From Anaerolineae bacterium (GTDB lineage Bacteria; Chloroflexota; Anaerolineae; B4-G1; SLSP01): 61,886 nucleotides of DNA. The DNA is taken from positions 1-61,886 of the forward strand of contig DAOTXC010000178.1 in NCBI GenBank assembly GCA_034435555.1. The letters run 5' to 3'. Below the pieces are notes generated by a model that saw only the letters and a program-made list of their open reading frames with translations, did not search any database and was not told the DNA's origin. The position numbers were made by a program, and so were the translations under genes. Shown piece after piece: positions 10,889-61,161 of this stretch (within the stretch, counting starts at the first letter, position 1; the number at the start of each line of letters is the position of its first letter).

Positions 10889-10964
10889 TGGTGGCCCCAA
10901 GGGAATTCGAATCCCTGTTTCCGGCTTGAGAGGCCAGCGTCCTAGGCCACTAGACGATGGGGCC
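10889..10964 (-). tRNA. tRNA-Glu (anticodon CTC)
   Basis: 76-nt cloverleaf: acceptor GGCCCCA/TGGGGCC, anticodon loop CT-CTC-AA, T-loop TTCGAAT, encoded CCA. Confidence 0.97.
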
Positions 10965-20263: not shown

Positions 20264-20317
20264 AAGCGAGTCAGCGAATCCGGGGGCAGCAAAATCCAGG
20301 TCACTCGTGGTTGTAGT

Positions 20318-27345: not shown

Positions 27346-29289
27346 TTACGGCAGATCAAATGCCTCGATGTTCCACATTTCGGAGGTCTCGGTGGAATCG
27401 AGCGACAACCCGATCACCCCTAGGCGAGCTGCCACCATCCGCAGGTGCAGATAGAGCGGGATCACGGGCAACTGCTCGGAGAAGATGCGTTGCGCCTCCA
27501 GATGGCCCTCGATGTAATCCTCCGTGCCGGGCAGCGATTCCAGCGCCAGACGGCAGGCCGCGTCATACGCCTCATTGGAGAAGCCGGTATTGTTACCACG
27601 ATCCTCCCAGCCGTTTTCTGCGGAGGGGGTCTGCCACGAGGCATAGAGCTCACAGGGCGGTTCGACATCGCCGCGCCAGGCAAACGAGCCCATATCGAAG
27701 CGCCGGCCAAACAGCGGGCCGGTCGGCCCCTCGGCAAACCACTCGGCAGTGGGCAGGCTCTGCAGGTTGACCTCGATGCCGCACGCCTCCAGGTTCTGCT
27801 GGAAGAACTGCATGTACTGCATCCGCTCCGGCACGGCATTGGAGGTCCAATTGAAGGCCAACGGTGTGCCATCAGGAATACCTTCGATATCCTGTGCCAC
27901 ACGCGGGCCTTCACCATCATCCACCCAGCCCAATCCCTCCAGCAAAGCCATCCCCGTGGCAGGATCGTACTCGTAAGTGGCGAGGCGTTCATCCGCATAC
28001 AGGGGATGTTCGGGCGGGACATAAGAATCGGGCACGACCGAGCGCCCATAGAGCAGCGTATCCACCACGCCCTGACGATCCAGGCAGTGCGCAATCGCGC
28101 GGCGTAGACGGACGTCCCCGAAGAAGTCAGGGCGGTCGTAGTCGCCCACTGGGTTGATGCCGAAATCCACATGCTCCCAAACCGTATCGGTGACGAACAG
28201 CAGCTCCAGCAAGCCGCGCTCCTCCATTTGGAGAAGTATCTCGGCCTGAGCACTCAGGGGGACATCGTGGGTAATGATATCACACTCGCCGGCCAGGAGC
28301 TGCACCACAGCCGCGTTGACATCGGGGATGAAGCGGAAGATGACGGCATCGAGGTAGGGCAAGCCTTCGCTGGCGCGGAAGTAATAGGGGTTCCGCTCAA
28401 GAATGATATGCTCGCCGGCCACCCACTCTGTGACCACGAACGGCCCCCAGCCCAGCGGCATCCGGGAGGATTCGGGGGCGGTGAGCAGCTCGCCGGCGGT
28501 GTAGCCCAGTTGCTCCTGCCAGAGACGGCGGGGAAGCGGCGACCAGAAGTTGGTGTAGTAGAGATTGTCAATATAGCCGGGCAGCCCCGTCCAAACGACC
28601 GTCTGTCCATCCACAGCCTCGTAGGAGGCTGTGCGCTGATAAATGTAGCGGGAAGCGACCGCATCGGGATCGCCCACGATCTCGTAGCTGTAGACGGAGT
28701 CATCGGCGGTAACGGCGCTGCCATCCGACCAACTCACATCCTCCCTGATGACAAACCACGCGGACATCTGATCCATCTGGACAGGCTCGCCATCGAATTC
28801 GATCTCGCAATCGGGCGCGCGGCAACCCGCAGGGCGCACCCGCACGCCCTCCGAGAGCTCCACAACGACATCCTCGGCGTTGACCACCCAATCCCCCGCC
28901 TGCACGATCACCGTGACAATCGTAGCATCGCCATCCTCAAGACTGGGGAGCTTTTCCAGAATGACCGATTGGTAAGCGTAGGTGCGATTGTCAATCGGGC
29001 CGTCGTAGAGCGCCTGCCAAATGTGTTGCGCTTCCTGCGCCGCGCTGCCGTACAGGTACAGGCTCTCCGGCTCCCGGCTTTGACAGATAACCAGGACCTT
29101 CGGCTCAGGCGGAGGCGGCTCGGGTGTGGGCGTCTCAGGAACCGGCGTCGGCGGGACCTCGGCTGCGGGAACTTCGGTCGCCGGCGCTTCCGTCACCGGC
29201 GCTTGTGTTGGCGCGGGGGTACACGCCACCAACAATAGACTCCCAAGCGTCAACATACCTACCAAAGCCATGAATTTTCTACCAAACAT
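27346..29289 (-). CDS. Peptide ABC transporter substrate-binding lipoprotein (family 5)
   Basis: Lipobox LVAC, Pro/Thr/Glu-rich linker, GWGPFVV, PYLDAVIFRFIPD, DVRLRRAIAHCLDR; RBS GGAGG. Confidence 0.9.
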   Translation of the reverse strand: MFGRKFMALVGMLTLGSLLLVACTPAPTQAPVTEAPATEVPAAEVPPTPVPETPTPEPPPPEPKVLVICQSREPESLYLYGSAAQEAQHIWQALYDGPIDNRTYAYQSVILEKLPSLEDGDATIVTVIVQAGDWVVNAEDVVVELSEGVRVRPAGCRAPDCEIEFDGEPVQMDQMSAWFVIREDVSWSDGSAVTADDSVYSYEIVGDPDAVASRYIYQRTASYEAVDGQTVVWTGLPGYIDNLYYTNFWSPLPRRLWQEQLGYTAGELLTAPESSRMPLGWGPFVVTEWVAGEHIILERNPYYFRASEGLPYLDAVIFRFIPDVNAAVVQLLAGECDIITHDVPLSAQAEILLQMEERGLLELLFVTDTVWEHVDFGINPVGDYDRPDFFGDVRLRRAIAHCLDRQGVVDTLLYGRSVVPDSYVPPEHPLYADERLATYEYDPATGMALLEGLGWVDDGEGPRVAQDIEGIPDGTPLAFNWTSNAVPERMQYMQFFQQNLEACGIEVNLQSLPTAEWFAEGPTGPLFGRRFDMGSFAWRGDVEPPCELYASWQTPSAENGWEDRGNNTGFSNEAYDAACRLALESLPGTEDYIEGHLEAQRIFSEQLPVIPLYLHLRMVAARLGVIGLSLDSTETSEMWNIEAFDLP

Positions 29290-29317
29290 TATTTCCTCCA
29301 AAAGTGAACGAATCGGC

Positions 29318-29353
29318 GAGTCAGCGAGAGTAAAATACGAAATACGCAATACC
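29318..29353 (-). repeat. Oriented heptamer-array element, copy 1 (5' UTR of the SBP gene)
   Basis: mRNA sense GTATTGC-GTATTTC-GTATTTTACTCTCGCTGACTC; same tail as copies 2 and 3. Confidence 0.8.
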
Positions 29354-29454
29354 ACCCTTGCCGCTTGCGACTTACGTTTCACGTCTCGCTCACCCATTGT
29401 AAAGCAATCCCCGAAAAGTCAAGCGCATGGTCGCCAAAATTTCGCGTTACACAC

Positions 29455-29509
29455 AAAAAAGCCGAGAGCGCAGAGTGCGCGCAGTGCGCTGTAACTCTAC
29501 GCTCTCGGC
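29455..29509 (-). terminator. Terminator of the ABC transporter operon
   Basis: GCCGAGAGCG / CGCTCTCGGC stem followed by a U-tract on the minus strand. Confidence 0.7.
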
Positions 29510-29544
29510 TATAAGTTATTGCCAGACTTGTCCGTCTTAGACTG

Positions 29545-29754
29545 TCACCGCTCTATATCTTTTCTATAAAGACGGGCGTACATCGCCGCGCCAATCAGCC
29601 CCATGACCAGCCCAAATGTCGAAGCCAGATAGGAGATCATGCTCAAGATGAAGCTCGCTGGAATCAGCTGCAACACCATGAGCCAGGGCAAGACGGCGCC
29701 CAGCACGACCAAGAATAGGCCAACGAGTATCAATCTAAGCGGACTAAACCACAT
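29545..29754 (-). CDS. Small 2-TM membrane protein
   Basis: 69 aa, two hydrophobic helices; start overlaps the stop of the upstream ATPase. Confidence 0.7.
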   Translation of the reverse strand: MWFSPLRLILVGLFLVVLGAVLPWLMVLQLIPASFILSMISYLASTFGLVMGLIGAAMYARLYRKDIER

Positions 29755-30752
29755 TACTTAAACAGCCAACAGGCAACCAGGTGATGCGGCTCCGGCTCAA
29801 AGTGCGGCGGCTGCTCCTTATCGCACAGCCCCTCCATGAAGTGGGGACAGCGCGGATGGAATCGGCAACCGGAAGGCGGATTGACCAGACTGGGCGGTTC
29901 GCCCGGCGGCACATCCCGGAACCTCGTCGCGTTGTCCGCATCAGGATCCGAAGTCGCCGCCAACAGCGCGTGCGTGTAAGGATGGCACGGGTTGCGAATC
30001 AGATCGTTGATGAGCGACTTCTCGACGGCCTGGCCCGCGTACATCACGAAGACCCGCTCGGAGAAGTAGCGCACGGTGGAGAGGTCGTGGGTGATGTAGA
30101 TGACCGCCAGGTTGTGGATCTCCTGCAAGCCGCGCAGCAGCTTGAGAATCTCCACCCGCACGGAAGCATCGAGCATCGAAACCGGCTCGTCCGCAACGAT
30201 CAGCTTCGGCTCCAGGAGCATCGCCCGGCTGATCACAATGCGCTGCTGCTGCCCCCCGCTCAACATGTGCGGATACTTGGGCAGGAAGTCCTCGATGGGG
30301 GCCATCTTGACCTCTTCGAGCACCTTACGGATGCGCCGGTCTTGCTCTTCCCTGGATTTCACACCATTGATGATGAGCGGCTCGCGCAAGATCTTCTCGA
30401 TGGTCATAAAGGGCGCTAACGCGCCGTAGGGGTCCTGCTGCACAAAGCCGATCTGCGAGCGGTACTCCCGGAGCGCCAGCCCCCGCTGTTTGGTAAGCTG
30501 CATCTTGTTGAAGGTAATAGTCCCATCCGTCGGTGTGTTCAACCCCAAAATCGTCTTCATCAGGCTGGTCTTGCCACAGCCGCTTTCGCCGACGATGGCG
30601 ATCGTCTGACCATAATCGAGATCGAAGGTGATGCCATCCACCGCCCGCACATATCCGGCGTGCCCAAAGCCAAAGCGCCGCAGCTCAAACCAGACCCGCA
30701 GATCGTTGACGGAGAGCAGTACGCCGTTATCTTCCATACTTTCGTTTTCCAT
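29754..30752 (-). CDS. Oligopeptide ABC ATP-binding protein (OppF-like)
   Basis: GESGCGKT, LSGGQQQR, DEP, HPYT and oligo_HPY tail CRFHPRC. Confidence 0.93.
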   Translation of the reverse strand: MENESMEDNGVLLSVNDLRVWFELRRFGFGHAGYVRAVDGITFDLDYGQTIAIVGESGCGKTSLMKTILGLNTPTDGTITFNKMQLTKQRGLALREYRSQIGFVQQDPYGALAPFMTIEKILREPLIINGVKSREEQDRRIRKVLEEVKMAPIEDFLPKYPHMLSGGQQQRIVISRAMLLEPKLIVADEPVSMLDASVRVEILKLLRGLQEIHNLAVIYITHDLSTVRYFSERVFVMYAGQAVEKSLINDLIRNPCHPYTHALLAATSDPDADNATRFRDVPPGEPPSLVNPPSGCRFHPRCPHFMEGLCDKEQPPHFEPEPHHLVACWLFK

Positions 30753-30816
30753 TGCCACTACCTCGTCCTGACCCTTTGCATTCACTTGAATGGACATAAA
30801 TCAGCGCTCCTCTCGC

Positions 30817-31779
30817 TCACGTATACAACCAGCATTTGACCAACCGGCCATCCAGCTCGATCGTGGGCGGTTCTTCATCGCAACGATCAAAGCGCTTGGT
30901 ACAACGATCAGCAAAGCGGCAACCGGTTGGAGGCATGAGCAGGCTCGGCGGTTGGCCGGTAATGAAGTCCGGCTCCTTATCGGTGCGCAGACGCGGCACA
31001 CTGTCCATCAGCTTCTGCGAGTAGGGATGCAGCGGGCGGTCGAAGAAGCGGTGCGCATCGCTCCGTTCCACGATCTGCCCCGCGTACATCACCGCCACGC
31101 TGTTCGCCAACTCGCTGGAGGTGGCGATATCGTGCGTGATAAGGATGAAACTGATGCCCAGCTCATTCTTGATCTCCTTGAGCACATTGAAGATATTCGC
31201 CTGGGTCAAAACGTCCAGCGCCGAGGTCGGCTCATCGAGCACGATGAGGTCCGGCGAAGTCACCAGGGCCATTGCGATGGCAACACGCTGGCGCATCCCC
31301 CCGCTCAGCTCGAAGGCGTAGCGGTGCAGGAAGTCCTGGGGGACACCCACGTGCTTGAACATCTTGCTGGCCTGCGCCAGCGCCTCTTCCTTGCGCATCG
31401 CGTTGTGGATGATGGAAGGCTCGGCCACCTGATCGCCTACCTTGAGCACAGGATTCAGGGAGTTCATGGCCGCCTGCGGCACCATGGACATACGCAACCA
31501 GCGCACCTGACGCCGATACTGCTCGTCAGTCAGCGCCATCACGTCCTTGCCGTCCAGATAGACCGCGCCCTTGTACGTGTGGACATTGCGGGGCAACAGG
31601 CGCAAGATCGCCTTCGCCAGGGAGGTCTTGCCACACCCCGACTCCCCCAACACCACCACCGCTTCATCGCGGTGCAGCTGGAAATTCACGCCATCCACTG
31701 CGCGCACGACACCTTTGGTTGCGCGGAAGTGTAAGATAAGGTCCTGCACATCAAGTAACAGATCTTTTCGTTCAGCCAT
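30817..31779 (-). CDS. Oligopeptide ABC ATP-binding protein (OppD-like)
   Basis: GESGCGKT, LSGGMRQR, DEPTSALD, HPYS, GCRFADRC. Confidence 0.93.
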   Translation of the reverse strand: MAERKDLLLDVQDLILHFRATKGVVRAVDGVNFQLHRDEAVVVLGESGCGKTSLAKAILRLLPRNVHTYKGAVYLDGKDVMALTDEQYRRQVRWLRMSMVPQAAMNSLNPVLKVGDQVAEPSIIHNAMRKEEALAQASKMFKHVGVPQDFLHRYAFELSGGMRQRVAIAMALVTSPDLIVLDEPTSALDVLTQANIFNVLKEIKNELGISFILITHDIATSSELANSVAVMYAGQIVERSDAHRFFDRPLHPYSQKLMDSVPRLRTDKEPDFITGQPPSLLMPPTGCRFADRCTKRFDRCDEEPPTIELDGRLVKCWLYT

Positions 31780-31781
31780 GA

Positions 31782-33131
31782 CTATACCTCCCTCAGGCGG
31801 GGGTTGAAGATACGATCCAGCGCGAAGCCCAACAAAGCAAAGGCCAGGCCCACCACCATCAGGAGCACCGCCGGCTGCAACACCCAATAGTATTGCCCAT
31901 TGTGCAGCGCGCCATTGGAACGCGCGTCATCAATCAACTTACCCCAGGTCGGCAGAATCGGGTCGCCGATCCCCAACACCGCCAGCGAAGCCTCAAGGAA
32001 AACGTAGGCGGGGATGGCGGACACCAGGCCGGGAATCAGCACCGGGATGATGCGCGGAACGAGGTAGGAGATGATCAAACGCCAGTTGCTGGCCCCGTAA
32101 GCCTGCGCCGCCTCGATGTAGGGCGATTCCTTGACCTGCAAGAAGATGGCGCGATAGCCTTTGATTCCCGCGCCGAAGATACTCAACGCGATGACCCATC
32201 CCAGGATGACCCAGATACTACGCCCATTCTCAAAGAAGGTCCCCACCATAATGAGGATGGGCAGGAAAGGCAAGACCATGTTGATCTCGGTGATGCGCTG
32301 GATCAAGCCGTCCACCACGCCGCCAAACCAGACCCCGATCGCCGCGATGATCATCGTGGTGACGGTGGTGCCCAGGGCCGCGAGCAAACCAAAGGAAAGC
32401 GCGATGGGCGTGCCCCAGAGCAACGCCACGGTCAGATCGCGCCGCCGGTGATCGGTGCCTGCCAGACCATGGACCTGTCCATAGAGCACGAATCGAGCAT
32501 CCAAGTCCGATTCCTCCTCGAAGACAACGCCCTCAACCCGCAACGTGTAGGTTCCCTTCACGACCGTGGGCGTCTCCAGATCAGGATCGGCAAAGAGGCC
32601 GATGCGCGGCTCAACTCCATCCAACCGGCGAACCAGCCGGTCATCCTGGTCAATGCGATAGGTCTCCGCGCTTCCGACGCTGATCTCGCCCAGCCGGATC
32701 GTCCGGCCATCGGGCGTGATCCAGGACATGGAGGCGTGCGGAAGGCGCTCCTCATACTGCGCGGTGAAAAAGACGCTCAGGGATTGGGGGAAGCCGTCGT
32801 AGTCATAATCGAAGGTGTACTCTATCGTCACATCATCCATATTTTCGGAGATGACCGAGGTGCTCTTTGTCACCCCCTCATCCCCCATCCTGAGCACCAA
32901 CGTCTCTGGCTGTGTCTGCTCACGGAAGAGGTTTGTCCACGCCGGCGGCACGGTACGAGGATTATCGCCCCAGATGTCCTCGCCACCGCGCCAGAGCCGA
33001 ATGGCTTCACTGTAAGGGATGGCGATAATGGTATAGATCGCCATCCCAACCATTACCAGAATGATCGCCAAGCCGATGACCGCTGAGGGGTATTGACGAA
33101 TATCCTTAAGGGTTTGAGTAAACCATTTCAT
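31782..33131 (-). CDS. ABC transporter permease (OppC-like) with a large extracytoplasmic domain
   Basis: LAGTDHRRRD, EAA motif YIEAAQAYGAS, PTWGKLI. Confidence 0.9.
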   Translation of the reverse strand: MKWFTQTLKDIRQYPSAVIGLAIILVMVGMAIYTIIAIPYSEAIRLWRGGEDIWGDNPRTVPPAWTNLFREQTQPETLVLRMGDEGVTKSTSVISENMDDVTIEYTFDYDYDGFPQSLSVFFTAQYEERLPHASMSWITPDGRTIRLGEISVGSAETYRIDQDDRLVRRLDGVEPRIGLFADPDLETPTVVKGTYTLRVEGVVFEEESDLDARFVLYGQVHGLAGTDHRRRDLTVALLWGTPIALSFGLLAALGTTVTTMIIAAIGVWFGGVVDGLIQRITEINMVLPFLPILIMVGTFFENGRSIWVILGWVIALSIFGAGIKGYRAIFLQVKESPYIEAAQAYGASNWRLIISYLVPRIIPVLIPGLVSAIPAYVFLEASLAVLGIGDPILPTWGKLIDDARSNGALHNGQYYWVLQPAVLLMVVGLAFALLGFALDRIFNPRLREV

Positions 33132-34273
33132 TAGTGTGCTCCTCCACTACCCACGCGCACTCTAGGATCCACAATGGCGTAGATGAAGTCCAGGAAAAAG
33201 ACGGTGAACGCCAGCAAATAGGCATAAATCACCGCCGATCCGACGATCACCGCAGTATCGAAGTGACCGATAGCCTGAAACAACAACCGCCCCAATCCCG
33301 GCCAGTTGAAAATCGTCTCCGCAATGATCGCCCCCTGCCACAGGGTGATCAACATCAGCGCGAAGTTGGTGATAATATTGGGCAACGTCGGGCGTAAGAT
33401 GTAACGCCGCTCAACTTCCCGGTCAGAAAGGCCCTTCGCGCGCGCCAGCTCCACGTAATCCTCCATCGAGAAGATCAGGAAGAAGGTGCGCCAGCCGTAG
33501 ACGCTGCCGAAGAAGCCGCTGACCAACCAGGCTGTTACCGGCAGAATCAGGTGCCGGCCGATGCTGAGCGCGCGCCCGACCAGATCTTGAGGCGGCGGCG
33601 CGGCCACCATCCCGCCGAAGGGCAGCCAGCCCAACACCGCGGCAAAGAGCAAAATCAGAAAAATCCCATAAAACCAGGCCGGCGCAGCGGAGATCGGCGA
33701 AAGGGCAATCACCAGCTTATCCAGTAAGCTCCCGTAATTACGGGAGAGATATAACGCAAAGAAAAGACTGACAAAAAAGAGCAGCAGGTTGGCCGTTGCC
33801 ATATATAGCAACGTCGGCGGCAGCCGCTCCAGGATGATGTTGCTCACCAGGCGGGAGCCGCTGTCGCTCGACATAAACTGCGCGCGGCCCAGATTGAGCG
33901 TCAAGGCGCGATAAAGGAAGCGGAAACTGCGGATCAAAAAGGGTTGATTCAATCCCAAACGCTCTTCCTCGACCGAGATGTACTCCTCAATGATTTGGTT
34001 ACGCTGTTCAGCAGGTAACTGGCGTATTTCCGGATCCATCCCCACGCTGATAGAAACCTGCTCGCGAATTTGTCCTTTGAGGATCCGATCCACGTATCCG
34101 CCCATATTGGCGATGAGGATGGTCAAATAGATACCAATGACAACGGCAATCAAGAGTGCTCCCAATTTGAGGCCGGAATAACGCAGCAACTTGAGTAGCA
34201 TGTTGGAGGTGGAAGCGCTCTTCTGTGCTGGTTGTTCAACATCAGGCTGCACAGCTAGGGCATTTTCAGACAT
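33131..34273 (-). CDS. ABC transporter permease (OppB-like)
   Basis: ERLPPTL, DYVELARAKGLS, ETIFNWPGLG. Confidence 0.92.
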   Translation of the reverse strand: MSENALAVQPDVEQPAQKSASTSNMLLKLLRYSGLKLGALLIAVVIGIYLTILIANMGGYVDRILKGQIREQVSISVGMDPEIRQLPAEQRNQIIEEYISVEEERLGLNQPFLIRSFRFLYRALTLNLGRAQFMSSDSGSRLVSNIILERLPPTLLYMATANLLLFFVSLFFALYLSRNYGSLLDKLVIALSPISAAPAWFYGIFLILLFAAVLGWLPFGGMVAAPPPQDLVGRALSIGRHLILPVTAWLVSGFFGSVYGWRTFFLIFSMEDYVELARAKGLSDREVERRYILRPTLPNIITNFALMLITLWQGAIIAETIFNWPGLGRLLFQAIGHFDTAVIVGSAVIYAYLLAFTVFFLDFIYAIVDPRVRVGSGGAH

Positions 34274-34326
34274 AATCGCAATTCTCTCTTTCTCTTGAAG
34301 ACAACCTTAAGTGATGGGGGTGTGAA

Positions 34327-34353
34327 CCGGGGGCGAGCAATGCTCGCCCCCGG
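34327..34353. other. Intercistronic hairpin after the SBP gene
   Basis: 13-bp perfect inverted repeat CCGGGGGCGAGCA / TGCTCGCCCCCGG; typical position for a stabiliser of the SBP mRNA segment. Confidence 0.6.
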
Positions 34354-34371
34354 CAGTACAGCCAAACCGCA

Positions 34372-36945
34372 CTAAGGCGCGGTTACGAAGGAAAGGGCGT
34401 CGGTGCTGGGAACAGCCACCAGCTTAGATACCACCACGATCTCCAACCGGCTGGAGCCGGCGACGAGATCGCCCGTGACATCCGCACTGAGGACCACTTC
34501 CCACAGCCCGTCCTCGATCGCCGTGCCCTCGCCCACGTACGCCACCGAGCCGACAGCGTCGAGGACCAGGAACTTGACATTGTCAATGTCCGCGATGGGG
34601 TAAGGTGAACCATCGGGCAAATTGACAAAGACATCGTAGACCGCTTCCTCGCCAATGGTCACGCGACCAGGGCCATCCACCTCAACGTCAGCCAGGGGGG
34701 CCTCGGCGAAGCGCATCCACTTGTCGGCCATGTCGGGGTAGTCGCGGAAGCGCTGCAGCACAACCGTACCCTCGACGGGGAAGGCGCGCTCCAGGTAGAA
34801 GGGGCCGGTGCCGATCCAGAAGTGACCACGGCGGCGGAACCACTCAGCGTAGTTCTCGAAGCGCATCTGAATCTCGGCGGCATCCACGTACTGGCCCAGA
34901 GTGGGCGCGTAGGGGATCTCACCGGTCTCGAGGACTGTGTTCAGATTGGCCTCCAGGATGGCGATGGTGGGGCCGGCGATGTAGCTCAGGCGCTCCACTT
35001 CCAGCGCATCGGCCTTGCCGCCGCTGAAGGCAGCCTCTTCGTTCTCCTCAGCCATGAGACCGAGGGTCAGCATGTGCCAGGAACCCTGGCCCTGCGCGTA
35101 GTAGGGGTACCAGGTGGTGACGGTGTTTTCCGCATCCGGCTGGAAGCTGTTGGAGTAGGTCTCGATGATGAGCGGATCCTCGGAGACGATGCGCACGCCC
35201 CGGAAGGCGGCCATGAAGGAGTTGTAGGCGGGCACTTTGGCCGCGTCGTAGTAGGGGCTGGCTTCCTGCGCCCGGTCGAAGGAGAGGATCATGGCCATGA
35301 TGACGTCGCCGATGGAGAAGGGGCTGCCATCGTGCCACAGGCTCTTCTCGTACAGGTCGGCTTCGTAGTAGACGGTGCTCATGCGCACCGCGGTCTGGGT
35401 CTCGGTGTAAACCTCGGCGGCGGTGAGGAAGCGCTGCTCCTCAGCATCCCAGGCAACCCAGGCGTCATCGGGGACAACGATTTCCGGCACGAAGTCCAGG
35501 CTGACCCAGTCGAGGGTCTGGACGATGGGCGTACCCTCTACCGCGACGACCTCAGCGCGCTCGACGCGCTGCGGGCGGTAAAGACCGGTGAAGGGGTCGG
35601 GCAGTGTTGCCATCTCGCCCGTCGCACGGATCAACATCATGTCGTAGATCCAGTTGCTGCCGTCGAGCGGGTTCCAGGCCTCGGTGAGGATGCTGGGCAT
35701 CCCGATGGTCATGGAGCCACCGACCTCGCCCGCACGCTGAATGGTCACAGGCCAGAGCCAGGAGCCGCTCACCGCGCCGTACAGGTCAGCCGCCACACGC
35801 ACTTCGGCGCGCGCGGGGGTCAGGGCGCCACGATCGGCCAGCCAGACGCGCGTGGAGTCTTCCAGTGACAGCCACAGCGCCTGCTCAAGCATATCACGGC
35901 GCTCTTCTAGCGACGCATAATCGGAGCGATCCAGCCGGTCAGCCAGGTCGTAGAACACCGGGTCGTTGACGTAGGCCTGCCACAGCGGCACGCCCAGGCC
36001 CATGTCGGTGTAGAAGAAGGCGAAGTTGTCGGCCAGGTTGCGGGGCACGACAGTGGTGATCCAGCCGCCGGTGTAGATGTGGAACAGACCATCGGCAGGG
36101 TTGCCGCTGATCCAGATCGGGGAAGCCTCGGCAGAGGTCTTGTAGTCGCGGATGACGGTGAAGCCGATGTCCTCAAGCTGGTTGCCGAGGTAGTCGCCCA
36201 TATCGCGGCGCTCGTCCTCGACACGGATGAGGATATTGATTTCGACAGGCTCGCCGTTGTAGTACCAGAGGCCGCCCTCCATGGTCGCCCCCAGGGCTTC
36301 CATTTCCTCGCCGATGATCTCGGCAGCGCGCTCGGGATTGTAAGCGTACTCGAGCTCGATCGCGCGGATCACATCAGCCATCAGCGCGGCATCGTTGGAG
36401 GCGCTGTTGAAGCACGTCCAGCGCGCCGTCCCCAGCCCGCCCATGATCTCCTGAACCAGGTAGTTGCGGTCAATGAGATAGTTCATGGCCTCGCGCACGC
36501 GCGCGATAGCGAAGGGGTTCAGCTTGCCGGTGCTCTCGAAAACGGGGCCGACGGGGTTGAAGGTGAATTCGTTGTAGGAGCCGGAAGAGCGGAAGCCAGA
36601 TAGCTCTGGTGAAGCGTTGACACGCGCCGCAACCTCAGGGTTGCCTACCGCAAAAGCGTAGAGGTCCATTTCACCTACCTCGAGGCGGGTGATGGCCTGA
36701 TCGCTGGAAGGCTCCTCGACCACGACGATGGTGTCCAGCCATGCGCCCTGGCGCTCCACAACGGGGCGCTCAGGCTCAACGGGGGCCTCAACCGGCACCT
36801 CGACCTCAACCGGGACCTCGACCTCAACGGGAACCTCGACAGTCACGGTGATCGTCTCAGGGGTCGGCTGCGCGCAGGCAGACAACATCATAGTAACAAC
36901 AATCAAGATGGCGAGCACAGCCGCCAACTTTTTCTGGGTAAACAT
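34372..36945 (-). CDS. Large (857 aa) ABC substrate-binding lipoprotein, family 5-like, with a C-terminal Ig-like extension
   Basis: Lipobox LSAC, VEVP repeat linker, NPFAIARVREAMNYLIDR, GTGPFYL; heads the permease/ATPase operon. Confidence 0.88.
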   Translation of the reverse strand: MFTQKKLAAVLAILIVVTMMLSACAQPTPETITVTVEVPVEVEVPVEVEVPVEAPVEPERPVVERQGAWLDTIVVVEEPSSDQAITRLEVGEMDLYAFAVGNPEVAARVNASPELSGFRSSGSYNEFTFNPVGPVFESTGKLNPFAIARVREAMNYLIDRNYLVQEIMGGLGTARWTCFNSASNDAALMADVIRAIELEYAYNPERAAEIIGEEMEALGATMEGGLWYYNGEPVEINILIRVEDERRDMGDYLGNQLEDIGFTVIRDYKTSAEASPIWISGNPADGLFHIYTGGWITTVVPRNLADNFAFFYTDMGLGVPLWQAYVNDPVFYDLADRLDRSDYASLEERRDMLEQALWLSLEDSTRVWLADRGALTPARAEVRVAADLYGAVSGSWLWPVTIQRAGEVGGSMTIGMPSILTEAWNPLDGSNWIYDMMLIRATGEMATLPDPFTGLYRPQRVERAEVVAVEGTPIVQTLDWVSLDFVPEIVVPDDAWVAWDAEEQRFLTAAEVYTETQTAVRMSTVYYEADLYEKSLWHDGSPFSIGDVIMAMILSFDRAQEASPYYDAAKVPAYNSFMAAFRGVRIVSEDPLIIETYSNSFQPDAENTVTTWYPYYAQGQGSWHMLTLGLMAEENEEAAFSGGKADALEVERLSYIAGPTIAILEANLNTVLETGEIPYAPTLGQYVDAAEIQMRFENYAEWFRRRGHFWIGTGPFYLERAFPVEGTVVLQRFRDYPDMADKWMRFAEAPLADVEVDGPGRVTIGEEAVYDVFVNLPDGSPYPIADIDNVKFLVLDAVGSVAYVGEGTAIEDGLWEVVLSADVTGDLVAGSSRLEIVVVSKLVAVPSTDALSFVTAP
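36786..36840 (-). repeat. In-frame 18-bp tandem repeat encoding (VEVPVE)n linker
   Basis: ACCTCGACCTCAAC(C/G)GG(C/G)-like unit about 3 times. Confidence 0.75.
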
Positions 36946-37086
36946 AGTCTCCTCCTTAAACAGGTTTTATGTTAGATTTTGATCAACAGATTGGAGAAAC
37001 TTTTCTTTTATAATCTTGTCGCTATCACCCCCTTTTTAAGTTGCCGACTTATGTCAGAGAAACCCCTTGTTCAAAACCACCTTACC

Positions 37087-37115
37087 ATATTACAACAAAC
37101 ACCACAGAAAGTCAA
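37087..37115 (-). promoter_or_regulatory. Promoter of the ABC operon
   Basis: TTGACT-N17-TAATAT. Confidence 0.6.
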
Positions 37116-37176
37116 ACCAGGGGCTTGCAAGGGCCTACAGCACTTCGTGGCCCCGCAACACACGGCCCGGTTACAC

Positions 37177-37461
37177 TCAGGCCATCAACAACGTCAACCG
37201 GCGTTGATTTTGCAACAATCCGGTAAACGCCAGCTCCCGAGCCTCGTAGGGGAAGAGTTCGCTCACGTCCAAGAGAACCGGCATGTGGCCCTGGTACAAC
37301 CCCAACCGGCCCAAAAGTCGTTGCCAACGTGGTCGCGAAGGTTGCTGCAATTGCGCCCACAGGCGAATCGCCGCCGCTTCCGGCGGCACGACCTCCGCAT
37401 AGGGCCGCAACCCCTCCCATAAGAGCGCGTCTATATCATCCTTGAAATTATGTGAATTCAT
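37177..37461 (-). CDS. Hypothetical 94-aa protein coupled to the ECF sigma gene (possible anti-sigma)
   Basis: ATG lies inside the last codons of the sigma gene; no TM segment and no ZAS motif. Confidence 0.6.
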   Translation of the reverse strand: MNSHNFKDDIDALLWEGLRPYAEVVPPEAAAIRLWAQLQQPSRPRWQRLLGRLGLYQGHMPVLLDVSELFPYEARELAFTGLLQNQRRLTLLMA

Positions 37462-38020
37462 AGGCCATCTCAGGCACCAAACGCTGACGCCGCGCCAGCG
37501 TCTCTCGCAGACGCTCACGGGCATAATAGAGCCGGGACTTGACCGTCCCCACCGGCAAATCGAGAATCTGGCTGATCTCCTCTAGGGGAAGATTCTCCAA
37601 ATAAAAGAGCACCACCACCGCCCGATGCACCTCCGGCAAATCGGCGACCACTTCCTGAACCAACCGCACCGTCTCGCCCCGTTCAGTGTTGCGATCCGGT
37701 GCGGGGAAGGCCCCCTGAGAGCCGCTAAACCATTCCAAAATATCTTCCACCGGTTGCATCCACCGCCGCTTCTTGGCCCAATCGTAAGCAAGATTGACCG
37801 TTGCCCGATAGAGCCAGGGCGCTAAGGGGCGGGTCCCATCAACTTTCGCAGCGTAGGTGTGGAGGCGAATGAAACACTCCTGCAAAATATCCTCAGCGGC
37901 GCGCTCATCGTGCGTCACAGCGAGCGCCGTGCGATATACCAGATTCTTGTATTGATGGTAAAGCTCCCCCAAAGCCTCCAAATCCCCTGCCTGGAGCCGC
38001 TCGATCAGGTCGTTGTCCAT
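37448..38020 (-). CDS. ECF (sigma-70 group 4) sigma factor
   Basis: AEDILQECF, WLYRATVN, region 4 GTVKSRLYYAR. Confidence 0.93.
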   Translation of the reverse strand: MDNDLIERLQAGDLEALGELYHQYKNLVYRTALAVTHDERAAEDILQECFIRLHTYAAKVDGTRPLAPWLYRATVNLAYDWAKKRRWMQPVEDILEWFSGSQGAFPAPDRNTERGETVRLVQEVVADLPEVHRAVVVLFYLENLPLEEISQILDLPVGTVKSRLYYARERLRETLARRQRLVPEMAYEFT

Positions 38021-38041
38021 TATTGCCTACCTCACGCTACT

Positions 38042-38800
38042 TTATATACTCGCGCTATCATCATCAGGTTCACATAAAGCCTGTTCAAATTGTACCAGAA
38101 AATCTCGATCTGCGGAGCTCAGCATCGCTCCTTGCAACAGCTCCGGGCGGCGGACGCAGGTGCGCAGCAGGGCCTGCTCCCGCTGCCAGCGGGCAATCGC
38201 CGCGTGGTTGCCGGAGCGCAACACCTCAGGGACCGCCCACTCACGGAAGAGCGATGGGCGAGTGTATTGCGGCCCCTCCAACAGCCCGGTCGCGTAGGAA
38301 TCCTGGCGCGCGCCCTCGTCGGCACCCAGCACGCCCGGCACAAAGCGCGCCACCGCATCCACCAGCACCATCGCCGCCAGCTCCCCGCCGGTGAGTACGT
38401 AATCGCCGATGGAGATCTCCGCTGTGACCAGATGCTCGCGCACGCGCTCGTCCACCCCCTCGTAGTGGCCGCACAGCAACACCAGCCGCGATTGCGTTGC
38501 CAGCTCCATCACCAACGCCTGCTCCAGCCGCCGCCCTTGCGGGGTGAGCAGGATCACCGGGGCGCGCTCCTCCCCCAGAATCGTCTCCACCGCCGCGAAG
38601 AGCGGTTCGGGCTTCATCACCATGCCGACCCCGCCCCCATAAGGCGCATCGTCGGTCAGCTGGTGGCGGTCGTGAGCATAATCGCGGATCTGATGCACGG
38701 CCACATCGAGCAACCCGCGCAGCAAAGCGCGCTTCAGGATGCTCTCCTGAAACGGCGCTAAGAACATCGCGGGGAAGAGGGTTAAGATGTCAATCCGCAT
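38042..38800 (-). CDS. trmD: tRNA (guanine37-N1)-methyltransferase
   Basis: [43 protein letters not shown]. Confidence 0.97.
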
Positions 38801-38882
38801 TATCTACTATTGTACCTTAAAGAGCCTTGTTTTTGCAAGGGAAGAATTGCAAAATCGCCCCAGACAAATATAACCCGCCCGC

Positions 38883-40220
38883 TTAGGCCACGGCCCGTTG
38901 CCACAGCGCCGCCGCCAGCTCCCGCGAGCGGGCGGTGATCTCCGCCTCATCTAGCGTGAGCAGCTGGCGGTCGCGCATCAGCACCCGCCCCGCGCTGATC
39001 GTCGCGGTGATCAGCGACGCCTCGTAGCCGAAGAGGAAGTGCCAGGGCAGATTGCCCGCCGTCAACGGCGTGGTGGGATGATAATCCACCAGCACCAGAT
39101 CGGCCTGCGCCCCCGGCGCGAGCACGCCCAGCTGCTGCTCCGGCCAGAAGAGGCGCGCCAGCTCCGCATTCGCGGCGTAGGCCAGCCGGAAGACCAGATC
39201 GCCGGGCATAGCGCGCGGGTCGCCCTGCGCCAGCTTATGCACCAGATAAGCGGCCTTCATCTCGGCGAACATATTGTTGCTGAAGCCATCGTTGCCCAGC
39301 GCCACCTTCACGCCCTCTGCCAGCAGCGCCTCGACAGGCCCAGTGCCCACGGCATTGTTCATGTTGGAGCGCGGCTGGTGTGTGACCCACGTCCCCGTCT
39401 CGGCCAACACCGCCATCTCGCTCGCGTCAACGTGGACCGCGTGCGCGACGATGGAGCGCGGCCCCAGGATGCCCGCCGCGTGCAGCCTGTGGATCACACG
39501 CAGCCCCGACTTGCGCAAACTGTCCTCCACATCCTCCACCCCCTCCGCCGCGTGGATGTGGAAGCCGGTCTCCAGCCCCTCCGCCGCAGCGACGGCGTCC
39601 GCCAACGTCTCATCGCTGAGCGTGAGCGAGGCATGCAGCCCAAAGGAGGCCGCCAGCTGCGGGTGCGGCGCGGCCTGCATCCGCCGCAGAAAGCGCGCAT
39701 TCTCGGCGATGCCCGCCTGCGCGAGCGCCGCCCCGTCGCGGTCGGTCACCTCGTAGCAGAGCGAGGCCCGCACGCCCGCGCGCACCACCTCCTCCGCGAT
39801 GATGTCGAGCGAACCGGCAATCGCGTGGGGGCTGGCATGGTGGTCAATCAGCGTTGTGGTCCCGTGGCGGATCGCATCGGCCAGGCAAACGAGCGCCGAA
39901 TAGCGCACATCCTCCGGGGTGAGCTCTTTGTCCAGCCGCCACCACAGCCGCTCCAAAATCTCGCCGAAGCGGCGCGCCGGCGGGCCGGGGTAGGCCCAGC
40001 CGCGCGCGAAAGCGCCATAGAAATGCGTGTGACCACAGAGCGCCGCCGGCAGCGCCAGCTGCCCACCCGCATCCCAGCGGGGTTCGTCGGGATACTGCGC
40101 GGTCAAGGCAGCGGTCGACTCCACCGCGACGATGCGTTCGCCCTGAATCAGCACCGCGCCATCTTCAATCAACTGTGGCTCCGCGCCCAGCGTCGCCACC
40201 CGTGCATGTGTGATGAGCAT
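38883..40220 (-). CDS. SsnA-like amidohydrolase
   Basis: CGHTHFYG, HGTTTLIDHHAS, HIHAAEG, AHAVH, GNDG. Confidence 0.82.
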   Translation of the reverse strand: MLITHARVATLGAEPQLIEDGAVLIQGERIVAVESTAALTAQYPDEPRWDAGGQLALPAALCGHTHFYGAFARGWAYPGPPARRFGEILERLWWRLDKELTPEDVRYSALVCLADAIRHGTTTLIDHHASPHAIAGSLDIIAEEVVRAGVRASLCYEVTDRDGAALAQAGIAENARFLRRMQAAPHPQLAASFGLHASLTLSDETLADAVAAAEGLETGFHIHAAEGVEDVEDSLRKSGLRVIHRLHAAGILGPRSIVAHAVHVDASEMAVLAETGTWVTHQPRSNMNNAVGTGPVEALLAEGVKVALGNDGFSNNMFAEMKAAYLVHKLAQGDPRAMPGDLVFRLAYAANAELARLFWPEQQLGVLAPGAQADLVLVDYHPTTPLTAGNLPWHFLFGYEASLITATISAGRVLMRDRQLLTLDEAEITARSRELAAALWQRAVA

Positions 40221-40235
40221 ATCAAACCTCCTAAT

Positions 40236-40300
40236 GAGTCAGCGAGAATAAAATACGAAATACGAAATACGCGATACGCAATACGCAATACGCATTACGA
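40236..40300 (-). repeat. Oriented heptamer-array element, copy 2 (longest)
   Basis: Six full ATACG(A/C)(A/G) heptamers plus one partial, next to the GAGTCAGCGAGA head; 4 nt from the ssnA-like RBS. Confidence 0.85.
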
Positions 40301-40305
40301 TCCCC

Positions 40306-41238
40306 TCACCCCTTTAACTGAAACCGTGAATCATTCGCCAGGGTGCGGCGCAGCCCTTCCTCCAACGTGACCCGTGGGATGTAGCCCAACAGCTTGCGCG
40401 CTCTGGTCAAATCCGCCCGCAAGCGCGAGACCCCGCCGCTTTCTACCTGGCTGTTGATGATATTGCTGGATGCCCCTGTGATCTCCAGAACGCACTGCGC
40501 CACCTGCGCGATGGACGTATCCACGCCGCTGCCCACGTTGATCGTCTCCCCAGAGATACCGGAGGTCGTCCCCGCCGCCAGCAGCGCCGCAACCACATCA
40601 TCAATGTAGACGAAGTCCCGCGTCTGCTCCCCGGAGCCGAAGATCACCAGCGAGCCATTGCCGACCGCCTGCCGCAGGAAGCGTGGGATGACCGGCGCGT
40701 GCGCCGGGGGGAGCTGCTGCCCCGCCCCATAAGCGTTGAAGATGCGCAGGGCCACCGTCTCGATCCCCCACAGCGCCCCAATCGTGTGGACGTAGTGCTC
40801 GGCGGCGAGCTTGCTCACCGCGTAGGGCGACTGCGGCCTGGGGCGGGCGCGCTCCGTGATCGGCTGGCGACGTTGCGGGCCGTAGACCGCGCCGGAGGAA
40901 GTCAGCACCAGCCGGGGGATCTGCACATCGCGCATCGCCTCCAACAGCGCCACCGTCCCCCCCACGTTGACGGCGTTGTATTCACCGGGATAGAGGATGG
41001 ACTCCGCCACCAAGACCCGCGCCGCCAGATGGTAGACGCAGTCCACATCCTGCAACAGCGTCCAGAGCTTGGGACGATCCCGCACGTCGCCGCGATGGAA
41101 GAGGACGCGCGCGTCCAGAGCCTCCGCATCGCCGGCGCTCAGATCATCAACCACGAGCACCGCGTGCCCGCGCGCGACCAGCGCATTCGCCAGCGCCCGT
41201 CCCACAAAGCCAGCCCCGCCCGTGATCAAAACTCGCAT
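40306..41238 (-). CDS. NAD-dependent epimerase/dehydratase
   Basis: GGAGFVG, SSGAVYG, YAVSK (YxxxK), RDFVYIDD. Confidence 0.92.
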   Translation of the reverse strand: MRVLITGGAGFVGRALANALVARGHAVLVVDDLSAGDAEALDARVLFHRGDVRDRPKLWTLLQDVDCVYHLAARVLVAESILYPGEYNAVNVGGTVALLEAMRDVQIPRLVLTSSGAVYGPQRRQPITERARPRPQSPYAVSKLAAEHYVHTIGALWGIETVALRIFNAYGAGQQLPPAHAPVIPRFLRQAVGNGSLVIFGSGEQTRDFVYIDDVVAALLAAGTTSGISGETINVGSGVDTSIAQVAQCVLEITGASSNIINSQVESGGVSRLRADLTRARKLLGYIPRVTLEEGLRRTLANDSRFQLKG

Positions 41239-41239
41239 G

Positions 41240-42298
41240 TCATCCCTCCGATTTGGCACGCCAGTAGCGCCATTGCGCCAGCGAGAGCAGCGGCGAACGC
41301 GCCCACCGATACAGCCGGTAGAGCCACCCCTGCGGCGTGTAATCGTAGGCCCCGATGTGCGGCGTGAACGCCGCGCCGAAGCCCTCCTTGAAGCGATAGA
41401 CGCCCCACAGCGGATCGCTCTCGTCCAGCACATCGGGCGCGCCCCAAAGATCGTACACCCGGCAGCCCAGGGCCTGCGCCCGGCGGATCGTCTCCCATTG
41501 CAGCAGATGGTTGGGCATCACCTGCCGATGCAGCTCCCGCGAGGCCCCGTACATGTACCAGGCCCGCGCCCCAAAGTGAAAGAGGATCAGCATGGAGAGC
41601 AGCGCGCCCTCGTATTCCGCCACCAACGGGAGCGCCAGCCCAGCCTCCACAAAGGTCCGCCACGCATCCAGATAGTAGGCCGCCTCGCGGATGATGAACC
41701 CATCGCGCAGCGCGGTCTCGGCGTACATCTCATAGAGCACCGGCAGTTCAGCGACCTCGGCTTCGCGCACGTTCACGCCGCGTCGCACCGCCAGCCGGAC
41801 ATTGTAACGCCACTTGGACTTCATCCCGGCCATCAATGTATCCAGATCCGGCGTCAGATCGAGGCACATCGTGTTCTTGAACTGCACCTGCTCGAACGCT
41901 CGCCGCCAGCCCCGGCGCTGCAACAGCGCCATCACCGCCGCGCCCGCCGATGTATCGCTCCGCACGTCGGGATCGATCTTCAACAGCAGGGCGGCGTGGT
42001 CGCGCGCATAGGTCGCCAGATCGGCCAACACCCGCTCCGCCAACGCCATATCCGTCCAATCGAGCAGCGGCCCTTTGGGTGTATAGAGCAAGGCGCGCCC
42101 CCCCGACCGGCGCTGCAAGAGCAGGGCCGCCGCGCGGGGCGTCTGTTCAGCATCGCGCCAGAGCAAGGGGGTGGCCTCCCATCCATGGCGCGCCTTGAAC
42201 GCGCCCCAGGCCCAACTTTGTAGCACATGCGGCGCAGGCAACTGCAACAACGCCGCATCCCAAACATTTGCATCCGCTACTTCTACTCTTATCTCCAT
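41240..42298 (-). CDS. FemAB/FemX-type peptidoglycan bridge aminoacyltransferase
   Basis: LQSWAWGAFK, YTPKGP, KWRYNVR, YGAS, YDLWG, GVYRFKEGFG. Confidence 0.88.
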   Translation of the reverse strand: MEIRVEVADANVWDAALLQLPAPHVLQSWAWGAFKARHGWEATPLLWRDAEQTPRAAALLLQRRSGGRALLYTPKGPLLDWTDMALAERVLADLATYARDHAALLLKIDPDVRSDTSAGAAVMALLQRRGWRRAFEQVQFKNTMCLDLTPDLDTLMAGMKSKWRYNVRLAVRRGVNVREAEVAELPVLYEMYAETALRDGFIIREAAYYLDAWRTFVEAGLALPLVAEYEGALLSMLILFHFGARAWYMYGASRELHRQVMPNHLLQWETIRRAQALGCRVYDLWGAPDVLDESDPLWGVYRFKEGFGAAFTPHIGAYDYTPQGWLYRLYRWARSPLLSLAQWRYWRAKSEG

Positions 42299-42325
42299 AA
42301 TCTAATTGTAGCACAGCCGAGGGAA

Positions 42326-42353
42326 TTGACACAGCGGCATATCTTGTTATGAT
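42326..42353 (+). promoter_or_regulatory. hflX operon promoter
   Basis: TTGACA-N16-TATGAT with extended TG. Confidence 0.65.
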
Positions 42354-42392
42354 TACGCCATGCGCCACGGCGCTACGTGAGAGAGGGGGGAA

Positions 42393-42438
42393 TTGCGTAT
42401 TTCGTATTGCGCATTTCGTATTTTACTCTCGCTGACTC
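42393..42438 (+). repeat. Oriented heptamer-array element, copy 3 (5' UTR of hflX)
   Basis: GCGTATT-TCGTATT-GCGCATT-TCGTATT-TTACTCTCGCTGACTC. Confidence 0.82.
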
Positions 42439-42468
42439 GTTGATTCACTGATTTTAGAGGGAGATTTC

Positions 42469-60981: not shown

Positions 60982-60992
60982 ATCATTCCGGC

Positions 60993-61161
60993 CCGCCGTG
61001 TCGTGTGCCGACGGTTTTGACCCTGCTAACGCAGGTGGGGACTTGCCAAGCGGTTCCGCTTTGCTCAAAAGCTACTGCATCCCCGCTTTATGGACGAGAG
61101 TCCCCTTTTGTCAAGGTGTTGGCTCAAAACCCCATCCCGGCATCACGTGCACGGCAGGTGC
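60993..61161 (-). ncRNA. ssrS: Probable 6S RNA
   Basis: About 170-nt rod. Closing helices pair 60995-61020 with 61124-61155; central bubble with a CCTGC/GCAGG hairpin; inner GGGGACT/AGTCCCC helix; own promoter (TTGCTA..TG-G-TATCAT) and terminator. Confidence 0.72.

Follow-up and report, generated by a model that had tools for sequence, protein, structure and literature searches.

We describe a small modular dispersed repeat that occurs three times in a 61,886-nt stretch of DNA from an uncultured Anaerolineae bacterium (contig DAOTXC010000178.1, hereafter the window), each time ahead of the ribosome-binding site of one of three unrelated genes. The element is built from a 5' arm (GGGTGAG followed by a purine run), three to seven head-to-tail heptanucleotides of the form (C)GTATTK and a fixed pyrimidine-rich tail, TTTTAYTCTCGCTGACTC, which in two copies runs on into GYYGATTC... 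up to the Shine-Dalgarno sequence (SD). It has been copied to unrelated loci within one uncultured Anaerolineae population, and its array differs by whole units and in unit sequence between near-identical strains, as replication slippage predicts. The reading that we favour, with moderate confidence, is that of a non-autonomous modular repeat of about 62-96 nt that carries a heptanucleotide microsatellite and probably affects the downstream gene at the RNA level. Its structural side has good support; its regulatory side, for which we draw on predicted RNA folds, is plausible.

The window contains exactly three occurrences of the 11-mer CTCGCTGACTC, at 29318-29328 and 40236-40246 on the reverse strand and at 42428-42438 on the forward strand, with head-to-tail 7-nt units directly 5' of each. 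In the orientation of the downstream gene, CGTATTTCGTATTTTAYTCTCGCTGACTC is common to all three copies. A search for GTATTKCGTATTKC with up to two mismatches returned 12 matches against 0.54 expected, a count reached in none of 100 shuffles, and Tandem Repeats Finder reported period 7 at all three sites (2.9, 7.1 and 4.6 copies). An earlier note on this DNA had claimed three copies with a shared tail and heptamers, and these counts bear it out; its tally of 2+, 6+ and 4 units was right in that the number varies, but a recount gives 3, 7 and about 5 (Table 1). The likeness extends beyond the arrays, and no dispersed repeat in the window is stronger than these three copies (I1, 62 nt, 82%; I2, 50 nt, 88%; D17, 35 nt, 94%). 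Each array is preceded by a purine-rich 5' arm; the GGGTGAG of the copy 1 arm is found again in copy 2, copy 3 retains GTGAG, and an nhmmer alignment of copy 1 with copy 2 spans arm to tail. On the 3' side, copies 1 and 3 remain alike through an 18-nt spacer as far as the SD (62 nt, 82%), and within this spacer an 8-nt period continues as had been proposed, albeit loosely (GCTGACTC/GYYGATTC). Plain simple sequence repeats (SSRs) share no non-repetitive flanks, whereas here an identical 15-nt non-repetitive tail and a related 5' arm accompany the array in three of three copies; the composite was therefore copied as a unit.

All three copies precede a protein-coding gene in the same sense: copy 1 an SBP_bac_5 solute-binding protein (SBP), copy 2 an SsnA-like amidohydrolase and copy 3 HflX. 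The distance from the end of the tail to the SD is 18 nt (GGAGG), 4 nt (AGGAGG) and 18 nt (GAGGGAG), values that the note had given correctly; a canonical SD follows every copy, and the array ends 29-43 nt from the start codon. Predicted promoters and gene calls imply that the copies are transcribed, as part of a leader or of intercistronic RNA, and immediately precede the SD. The hflX promoter found by the scan (11 of 12 matches) would place copy 3 inside a 5' untranslated region (5' UTR) of about 108 nt. Copy 1 lies downstream of a putative promoter recognized by eye, whose 15-nt spacer is outside the 16-18 nt that the promoter scan requires, so that the proposed -10 element upstream of copies 1 and 3 is confirmed for copy 3 and stands as a visual reading for copy 1. 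Copy 2 is intercistronic; it fills the 85-nt gap between an epimerase stop codon and the ssnA start, with the epimerase TGA lying within its 5' arm, and the epimerase ends ...RFQLKG* in the window and ...RFRRK* in relatives. Gene calls and the hflX promoter support the placement of this family in leaders immediately 5' of ribosome-binding sites. The same-sense placement stands, but the lock on orientation that the note had read into it is not established, as three copies would agree in orientation by chance with a probability of about 1/8 to 1/4. At the copy 1 locus, the mechanically called SBP open reading frame (ORF; 27346-29397, reverse strand) is open for 36 codons 5' of the real start, through all of copy 1 (MGERDVKRKSQAARVVLRISYFTLADSPIRSLLEEI-MFGRKF...); the annotation starts the gene further downstream, at the ATG at 29289, which has an SD and is followed by a signal-peptide-like N-terminus.

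Strain comparison shows that the array changes length. JGI 3300022547, ENA ERZ27245514 and ENA ERZ1742330 all contain a 65-kb metagenome contig of which the window is a variant, and the corresponding loci L001, L002, L003, L203 and L204 are 99.83-99.98% identical to the window. Among these near-identical strains, the sole indel in 21 kb is one heptamer in copy 2, which has seven units in the window, seven units of different sequence in L001 and six in L002; moreover, two of the 14 single-nucleotide differences from L001 fall inside the 50-nt copy 2 array. In L003 (1-25; ENA ERZ1742330 NODE_12946), the assembly breaks within this array, which fits repeat or allele heterogeneity. Copy 2 thus behaves as a slippage-prone microsatellite. 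An assembly artefact was considered and ruled out, the copies being identical in three or four independent assemblies. A comparison of unit number between strains was among the checks that the note had suggested, and its idea of an enhancer tuned by repeat number gains from the result to this extent: unit number does vary between near-identical strains, so that tuning is at least mechanistically possible.

The best HflX matches of the window, at 72-75%, mark its source as an Anaerolineae bacterium, and the nearest relatives found lack the element. The hflX site is without it in relatives at 71-75% HflX identity, and the ssnA site is without it in relatives of the same clade at 86% SsnA identity. 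The hflX leaders of these relatives are about 25-80 nt long and the -10 'cgctatgat' is conserved; because the -10 is kept in front of short, element-free leaders, copy 3 is taken as an insertion of about 60-80 nt inside the 5' UTR. At ssnA, the relatives (L449-L456, 86% SsnA identity) have the order epimerase-BrkB-SsnA-EamA, compared with epimerase-(element)-SsnA-TrmD-sigma factor in the window (40221-40311), and this difference places copy 2 at a synteny break. The copy 1 arm is, furthermore, an imperfect inverted copy of the tail (GGGTGAGCGAGA versus GAGTCAGCGAGA, 10 of 12 matches). Together with the Caldilineaceae analogue described below, the element-free sites and these imperfect terminal inverted repeats strengthen one option that the note had listed, the footprint of a mobile element.

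The nearest relatives have a dispersed leader block of their own, CGTGAAATTCGTGTTCATTCGGGGCCRTTTTCGARGGA (L449 1485-1591, also L450-L454; L126 82-127; L251 509-554), found directly before the epimerase SD in one lineage and upstream of the hflX promoter in another. By eye, this block shares ACGTGRRAACGTAAGT and GACTCGTGATTCG with the window element; nhmmer gave no support for the likeness at E<=1. In the hflX leader of a 71%-identity relative (L159 5920-5975), GGTATTGGGTGAG occupies the loop of a GGGGGCGG/CCCGCCCC hairpin and CGTATTTC stands directly before the SD; these motifs could be the seed or the relic of a similar element, or chance. Relatives also have a tandem repeat of about 22 nt, cctactaggaatcatttacgtt, in about five copies upstream of a FemAB-like gene (L449 1-130, L451 1-130).

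Table 1. Coordinates of the three copies, their modules and the adjoining signals in the window.
Feature	Position	Strand	Basis or remark
Copy 1, whole	29318..29395	-	Sequence reading, pattern matches
Copy 1, 5' arm GGGTGAGCGAGAC	29395..29383	-	
Copy 1, degenerate 7-nt units cgtgaaa/cgtaagt/cgcaagc	29382..29354	-	
Copy 1, array GGTATTG CGTATTT CGTATTT (3 units)	29353..29333	-	
Copy 1, tail TACTCTCGCTGACTC	29332..29318	-	
Copy 1, 18-nt 3' extension GCCGATTCGTTCACTTTT	29317..29300	-	Resembles copy 3 extension
SBP gene SD GGAGG	29299..29295	-	
SBP_bac_5 gene ATG	29289..29287	-	Gene call, Pfam PF00496
Putative SBP promoter TTGACT (29422..29417), 15-nt spacer, TACAAT (29401..29396)	29396..29422	-	Read by eye, inference
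Copy 2, whole	40236..40311	-	Pattern matches, Tandem Repeats Finder, gene calls
Copy 2, 5' arm GGGTGAGGGGAT	40311..40300	-	Includes epimerase TGA stop 40308..40306
Copy 2, array CGTAATG, CGTATTG x2, CGTATCG, CGTATTT x3 (7 units)	40299..40251	-	
Copy 2, tail TATTCTCGCTGACTC	40250..40236	-	
ATT, SD AGGAGG (40232..40227) and ssnA-like amidohydrolase ATG (40220..40218)	40218..40235	-	Relatives named putative aminohydrolase SsnA
Copy 2, candidate upstream ORF	40239..40295	-	GAGGGG, 6 nt, ATG; encodes MRIAYCVSRISYFVFYSR*, stop is the tail TGA
Copy 3, whole	42377..42438	+	Pattern matches, Tandem Repeats Finder, dispersed-repeat comparison
Copy 3, 5' arm GTGAGAGAGGGGGG	42377-42390	+	
Copy 3, array GAATTG CGTATTT CGTATTG CGCATTT CGTATTT (about 5 units)	42390-42423	+	
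Copy 3, tail TACTCTCGCTGACTC	42424-42438	+	
Copy 3, 18-nt 3' extension GTTGATTCACTGATTTTA	42439-42456	+	
Copy 3, candidate upstream ORF	42393..42443	+	GAGG, 6 nt, TTG; (L/M)RISYCAFRILLSLTR*, stop is the TGA in the first octamer after the tail
hflX SD GAGGGAG	42457-42463	+	
hflX TTG start	42469-42471	+	HflX Pfam domains
hflX promoter TTGACA-16-TGtTATGAT	42326..42353	+	Promoter scan, 11/12 matches

An element of the same design occurs in Caldilineaceae. Three loci of otherwise unrelated context share the array together with about 95 nt of flank (L032 1380-1530, L044 6400-6560, L052 660-810), and a scan with this flank found tens of copies in single Caldilineaceae genomes, such as OZ253474.1 and OZ244877.1 (L330-L446). 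The element starts with TAATGTGCGTTCAC, finishes with GGGATTCACATTA and has 7-nt inverted ends (TAATGTG...CACATTA); its layout is TAATGTGCGTTCACATTGAGAACCCGC...GAATTG(CGTATTK)1-6GCGTAAGGGCAGGCGAGAC...GTCTCGGTTTCAAACGGGATTCACATTA. Its main sizes, about 129, 136 and 143 nt, are 7-nt steps apart, with one to six internal CGTATTK units. It is found at gene starts and gene ends in both orientations (26/22/22/16; 26 to 22 by orientation), and some copies supply a stop codon or abut an SD; no Rfam family matches it. The resemblance to the window element lies in a short, non-coding, multi-copy form, the CGTATTK unit, the 7-nt size steps and insertion at gene boundaries, whereas outside the heptamers the two have no similarity. 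A small inverted-repeat element with an internal CGTATTK microsatellite is thus a recurrent Chloroflexota architecture, and its Caldilineaceae example shows no orientation lock.

The heptamer itself is widespread. A scan of GTDB species genomes for three CGTATTK units gave at least 119 loci (L004-L122); the figures that follow hold among the matches listed. These include 44 Chloroflexota, 28 Bacteroidota, 20 Planctomycetota and 6 Kiritimatiellota, together with very few Proteobacteria, a single actinobacterial locus (in a metagenome-assembled genome from Acidimicrobiia) and no Firmicutes; several genomes matched repeatedly. Other 7-nt arrays often adjoin the CGTATTK arrays, an inverted partner array being present at 17 of 127, and the neighbours are unrelated housekeeping ORFs (G6PD, TsaD, TIM, Ddl, adenylate kinase, DnaJ and transporters). 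Within 60 nt of a start codon, 33 arrays are antisense and 10 sense relative to the orientation in the window (binomial p = 6e-4), a count based on crude ORF calls. The common form elsewhere is (CAATACG)n/(AAATACG)n, such that the mRNA reads MAATACG 4-40 nt before start codons. The note had reasoned that a random miniature inverted-repeat transposable element (MITE) would not keep its strand; the predominance of the opposite orientation in these genomes, and the presence of both orientations in the Caldilineaceae analogue, leave that argument unsupported. A search of the accessible literature for a CGTATTK-type heptamer as a tandem repeat returned nothing relevant.

RNA folding offers one possible reason for the bias. 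(CGUAUUG)7 is predicted to fold with -19.2 kcal/mol through G-U pairs, compared with -2.5 for its antisense, and (CGUAUUU)n is predicted to be unstructured; folding restricted to the CGUAUUG strand could explain the ratio of 33 to 10. A broad extension of this idea, which we regard as doubtful, is that environmental bacteria (Chloroflexota, Planctomycetota, Bacteroidota and Kiritimatiellota) widely use CGTATTK/MAATACG arrays as a strand-sensitive leader module tuned by slippage, the window element being its packaged mobile version. One orientation, the common form, would then be unstructured and A-rich, the other would fold through G-U pairs, and slippage by whole units would alter leader structure or the frame of an upstream ORF (uORF), giving a contingency 'rheostat' on housekeeping genes of non-pathogens.

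Under the reading that we favour, the element, once transcribed in the window orientation, would act in cis on the downstream cistron in a way that depends on the number and type of its units. The window copies have the orientation predicted to be structured, with hairpin-forming G-type units 5' of U-rich T-type units. CGUAUUG units would pair mutually via G-U into a hairpin that grows with unit number, and the U-rich CGUAUUU units behind it would complete a shape like that of an attenuator or an RNase III substrate. The UCUC of the tail may alternate between two partners, the 5' arm and the SD. Consistent with such alternatives, the predicted fold of copy 1 pairs arm with tail (z = -3.4), whereas in copy 2 the tail UCUC is predicted to pair with the SD, which is left with an unpaired probability of 0.05. 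A leader hairpin of repeat and G-rich arm is predicted in copies 1 and 3, with a significant z-score in copy 1 alone. The strain variants of copy 2 differ in predicted fold (-27.2, -31.4 and -25.8 kcal/mol), and the SD would be sequestered in the window variant only. In addition, each copy has an SD-like purine run about 6 nt 5' of a start codon in the first unit, which may open a short uORF; each 7-nt slip would then shift its frame, such that translation stops before, or overruns, the downstream SD and start codon. Spread as a MITE- or BOX-like repeat is probable, and any regulatory effect would be secondary to that spread.

Several observations weigh against this reading. Only three copies are visible in 62 kb, and the three downstream genes have no functional link. 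Convincing inverted ends are confined to copy 1, the similarity in copies 2 and 3 being limited to GGGTGAG and GTGAG; no target-site duplication was found at the copy flanks (aat/gcc, aaa/att and tac/gtt), and neither a transposase nor any other mobilising gene is among the window gene calls. The strains do not differ in copies 1 and 3, whose units are fewer and less perfect. With z-scores of -1.3 and -0.6, the predicted folds of copies 2 and 3 do not stand out, and all RNA-level effects are predictions. Finally, viral contigs contain six CGTATTK arrays against 27 and 12 for two control heptamers of shuffled unit sequence; as the controls are as frequent or more so, we claim no sequence specificity for CGTATTK, and the heptamer itself may be nothing special.

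The main rival holds that the repeat is selfish and merely tolerated: a MITE-like or recombination-spread fragment with a microsatellite, accommodated in scarce non-coding bases and devoid of a regulatory role, whose common orientation and nearness to the SD are a coincidence and a consequence of a compact genome. With three copies a shared orientation is no great surprise, intergenic gaps are short (without the element, that of copy 2 would be only about 10 nt), the Caldilineaceae analogue lies at gene starts and ends in both orientations, the control heptamers array as readily in viral DNA, and the nearest relatives do without the element. We nevertheless consider this account less probable than the favoured one, and on balance unlikely, because three of three copies end in a fixed relation to the SD, the similarity of copies 1 and 3 extends to the SD, and the predicted strand-specific G-U pairing and SD complementarity would make some effect on expression hard to avoid, even an unselected one.

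An improbable alternative is phase variation through the uORF, in which the purine run is a real SD, the first heptamer supplies the start codon and the array is translated. As 7 equals 1 modulo 3, each slip would move the stop; termination in the tail would allow coupling or re-initiation, whereas an overrun would block the SD and start codon of the gene. Suitably spaced signals are present in copy 2 (GAGGGG-6 nt-ATG) and copy 3 (GAGG-6 nt-TTG), where the candidate frames stop at a TGA in the tail or the first octamer. In the six-unit strain L002, the candidate frame of copy 2 is shifted; it continues across the SD and ATG of ssnA and meets its stop 52 nt into that gene; in copy 3, TGAs spaced by octamers close all three frames. 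Copy 1 departs from this scheme, however, with a frame that runs open into the SBP ORF and meets no stop, copies 1 and 3 are not polymorphic, and SD-like purine runs are common in this G+C-rich genome. The encoded peptides also differ between copies, and a conserved uORF peptide is ruled out, because the three copies use three different frames relative to the tail.

Recognition by protein seems less probable still. In this view, which the note had put first, the array might be coated by a protein that recognizes a U-rich single-stranded stretch of about 7 nt (a cold-shock-domain protein, S1 or a TRAP-like oligomer) and so controls translation or stability; the regular 7-nt register of U-rich units and the predicted lack of structure in the CGUAUUU units nearest the SD would suit it, and a like proposal has been made for TAACTGA repeats (PMC4679880). 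We judge this quite unlikely, given that unit number and unit sequence vary freely, that the downstream genes are unrelated and that CGTATTK arrays elsewhere are mostly reversed, contrary to what a conserved RNA recognition code would lead one to expect; the window gene calls yielded no candidate protein, and none was sought further. At the DNA level, the heptad direct repeats might be bound by a transcription factor or a nucleoid protein, as an operator or roadblock, or might be a recombination hotspot at rearrangement junctions. Copy 2 lies exactly at a synteny break, and some regulators, for example SARPs, do use heptameric direct repeats (PMC5930380), but the units follow one another in strict tandem and lack helical-phase spacing, the promoters are upstream of the arrays, and no regulator gene adjoins any copy according to the window gene calls; such a role is very unlikely. 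Least credible of all is the link that the note had raised, to flanking repeats of gene cassettes for four-helix-bundle (23S IVS) proteins or GxxExxY proteins. One array (L063) is indeed followed by a 23S_rRNA_IVP-family ORF, but it is one of 67 sense-side ORFs, and the family does not appear in the list for 85 other-side ORFs (both counts among the matches listed). The neighbours are assorted housekeeping genes, and no such gene stands beside the three window copies. For this heptamer, the families of the neighbouring ORFs refute a link to four-helix-bundle (PF05635) or GxxExxY genes.

Several known systems resemble the element in part. Modular repeats with a variable internal module are known, among them MITEs and the pneumococcal BOX elements, the latter with the structure boxA-(boxB)n-boxC. 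These share with the window element a short, non-coding, multi-copy form, ends that form partial inverted repeats, a variable number of internal modules and insertion at gene boundaries, where they may provide a stop codon or abut an SD; the window element differs in that it has no target-site duplication and that its inverted ends are weak in two of three copies. In the trp leaders of Bacillus, TRAP sites consist of 9-11 (G/U)AG triplets with spacers of 2-3 nt and are read by an 11-mer protein. They, too, are short repeats spaced regularly in leader RNA upstream of an SD, whereas the units described here are contiguous 7-mers of variable number before genes without a metabolic link. Heptamers of the short tandemly repeated repetitive (STRR) type were reportedly described in cyanobacteria by Mazel et al. 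in 1990. In the account of Mrazek et al. (2007) that is summarised in PMC4679880, heptanucleotide repeats are the commonest class of long SSR (LSSR) in many bacteria. GGGNATC repeats of Xanthomonas and Nostoc show strand-biased placement near ORF ends (PMC4692102). LSSR, STRR and GGGNATC repeats are tandem heptanucleotide arrays, mostly intergenic, of variable unit number and scattered phylogeny; they are transcribed, show a strand preference and often lie no more than about 50 bp from an ORF boundary. As in LSSRs and STRRs, the window element has head-to-tail units in the range of 5-11 nt beyond chance and, in copy 2 only, a unit number that is polymorphic between close genomes. Those repeats are plain arrays, however, whereas the identical non-repetitive flanks in the window point to copying of the whole composite and not to independent local origin.

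Two described systems come closer in position. TAACTGA heptamer repeats of marine Beggiatoaceae and of some Cyanobacteria and Bacteroidetes (MacGregor 2015, PMC4679880) are direct repeats at many unrelated genes, mostly in one orientation and immediately upstream of start codons; they are patchily distributed in phylogeny, and a translational role has been proposed. The unit is a different one, and TAACTGA repeats lie within a few nucleotides of the start, where they overlap the ribosome-binding site or take its place and a canonical SD is seldom present, whereas in the window a conserved 5' arm and 3' tail flank the array and a canonical SD follows the element after 4-18 nt. In the 5' UTRs of Haemophilus influenzae hmw1A and hmw2A, (ATCTTTC)n controls expression by pairing with a G-rich arm into a hairpin, with processing by RNase III (PMC12721329). 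Here, too, a T/U-rich 7-nt SSR would lie between promoter and start codon and be transcribed within the 5' UTR, as far as the predicted promoters of the window indicate, and a G-rich flanking segment is predicted to be able to pair with the repeat. Slippage changes unit number in both; the dependence of output on unit number through a leader hairpin comes from the hmw data and is a prediction for the window element. The hmw unit has no sequence relationship to CGTATTK, and its arrays have at least 11 units in one gene family of a host-adapted pathogen, compared with 3-7 units before three unrelated housekeeping genes of an environmental Anaerolineae, where the repeat forms part of a dispersed element that has a fixed tail. 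To speak of an undescribed system, as the note did, was therefore too strong, since both start-proximal heptamer repeats and a heptamer SSR in a 5'-UTR hairpin had been described (PMC4679880, PMC12721329). The element unites features of described repeats, being a dispersed modular leader element that carries a slippage-prone heptamer array.

Searches for further copies agree with the number of three. Profiles of the 3' half and single-copy queries (nhmmer) found no further diverged copies in the window or in 1.5-2.2 Mb of related or array-bearing loci. Exact-pattern scans gave no element match in GTDB species genomes and none in JGI metagenome contigs, although this contig exists in JGI sample 3300022547. 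Covariance models of Rfam did not match at the elements, either at the gathering score or at E<=5. A tail-only remnant that the note had placed at 20266-20279 is doubtful and was not counted: the sequence concerned, TTCGCTGACTCG (20268..20279, reverse strand), is an 11-mer with one mismatch (20268-20278), about 1.8 such matches being expected by chance, and it lacks heptamers and was missed by the element profile. Elsewhere in the window there are a 6S RNA at 60987-61163 (reverse strand; 56.8 bits, above the gathering score), a tRNA gene at 10892-10964 (reverse strand) and an 18-nt tandem repeat, CCTCAACCGGAACCTCGA, at 36786-36840 (3.1 copies, 91% matches) inside an 857-residue ORF without a Pfam hit (34372-36945, reverse strand).

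If unit number does set output, SSR-based tuning of expression, studied so far almost only in host-adapted pathogens and their surface antigens, would extend to housekeeping genes (hflX, a peptide-binding protein and an aminohydrolase) of free-living uncultured Chloroflexota, and such a tuner would travel as a small mobile cassette. The match between the strand bias of 33 to 10 and the predicted asymmetry in RNA folding would provide a simple and testable reason why repeats retain a strand. Should it prove to be without effect, on the other hand, the element would be a dispersed repeat of the ordinary kind, yet a useful strain marker and a source of assembly breaks.

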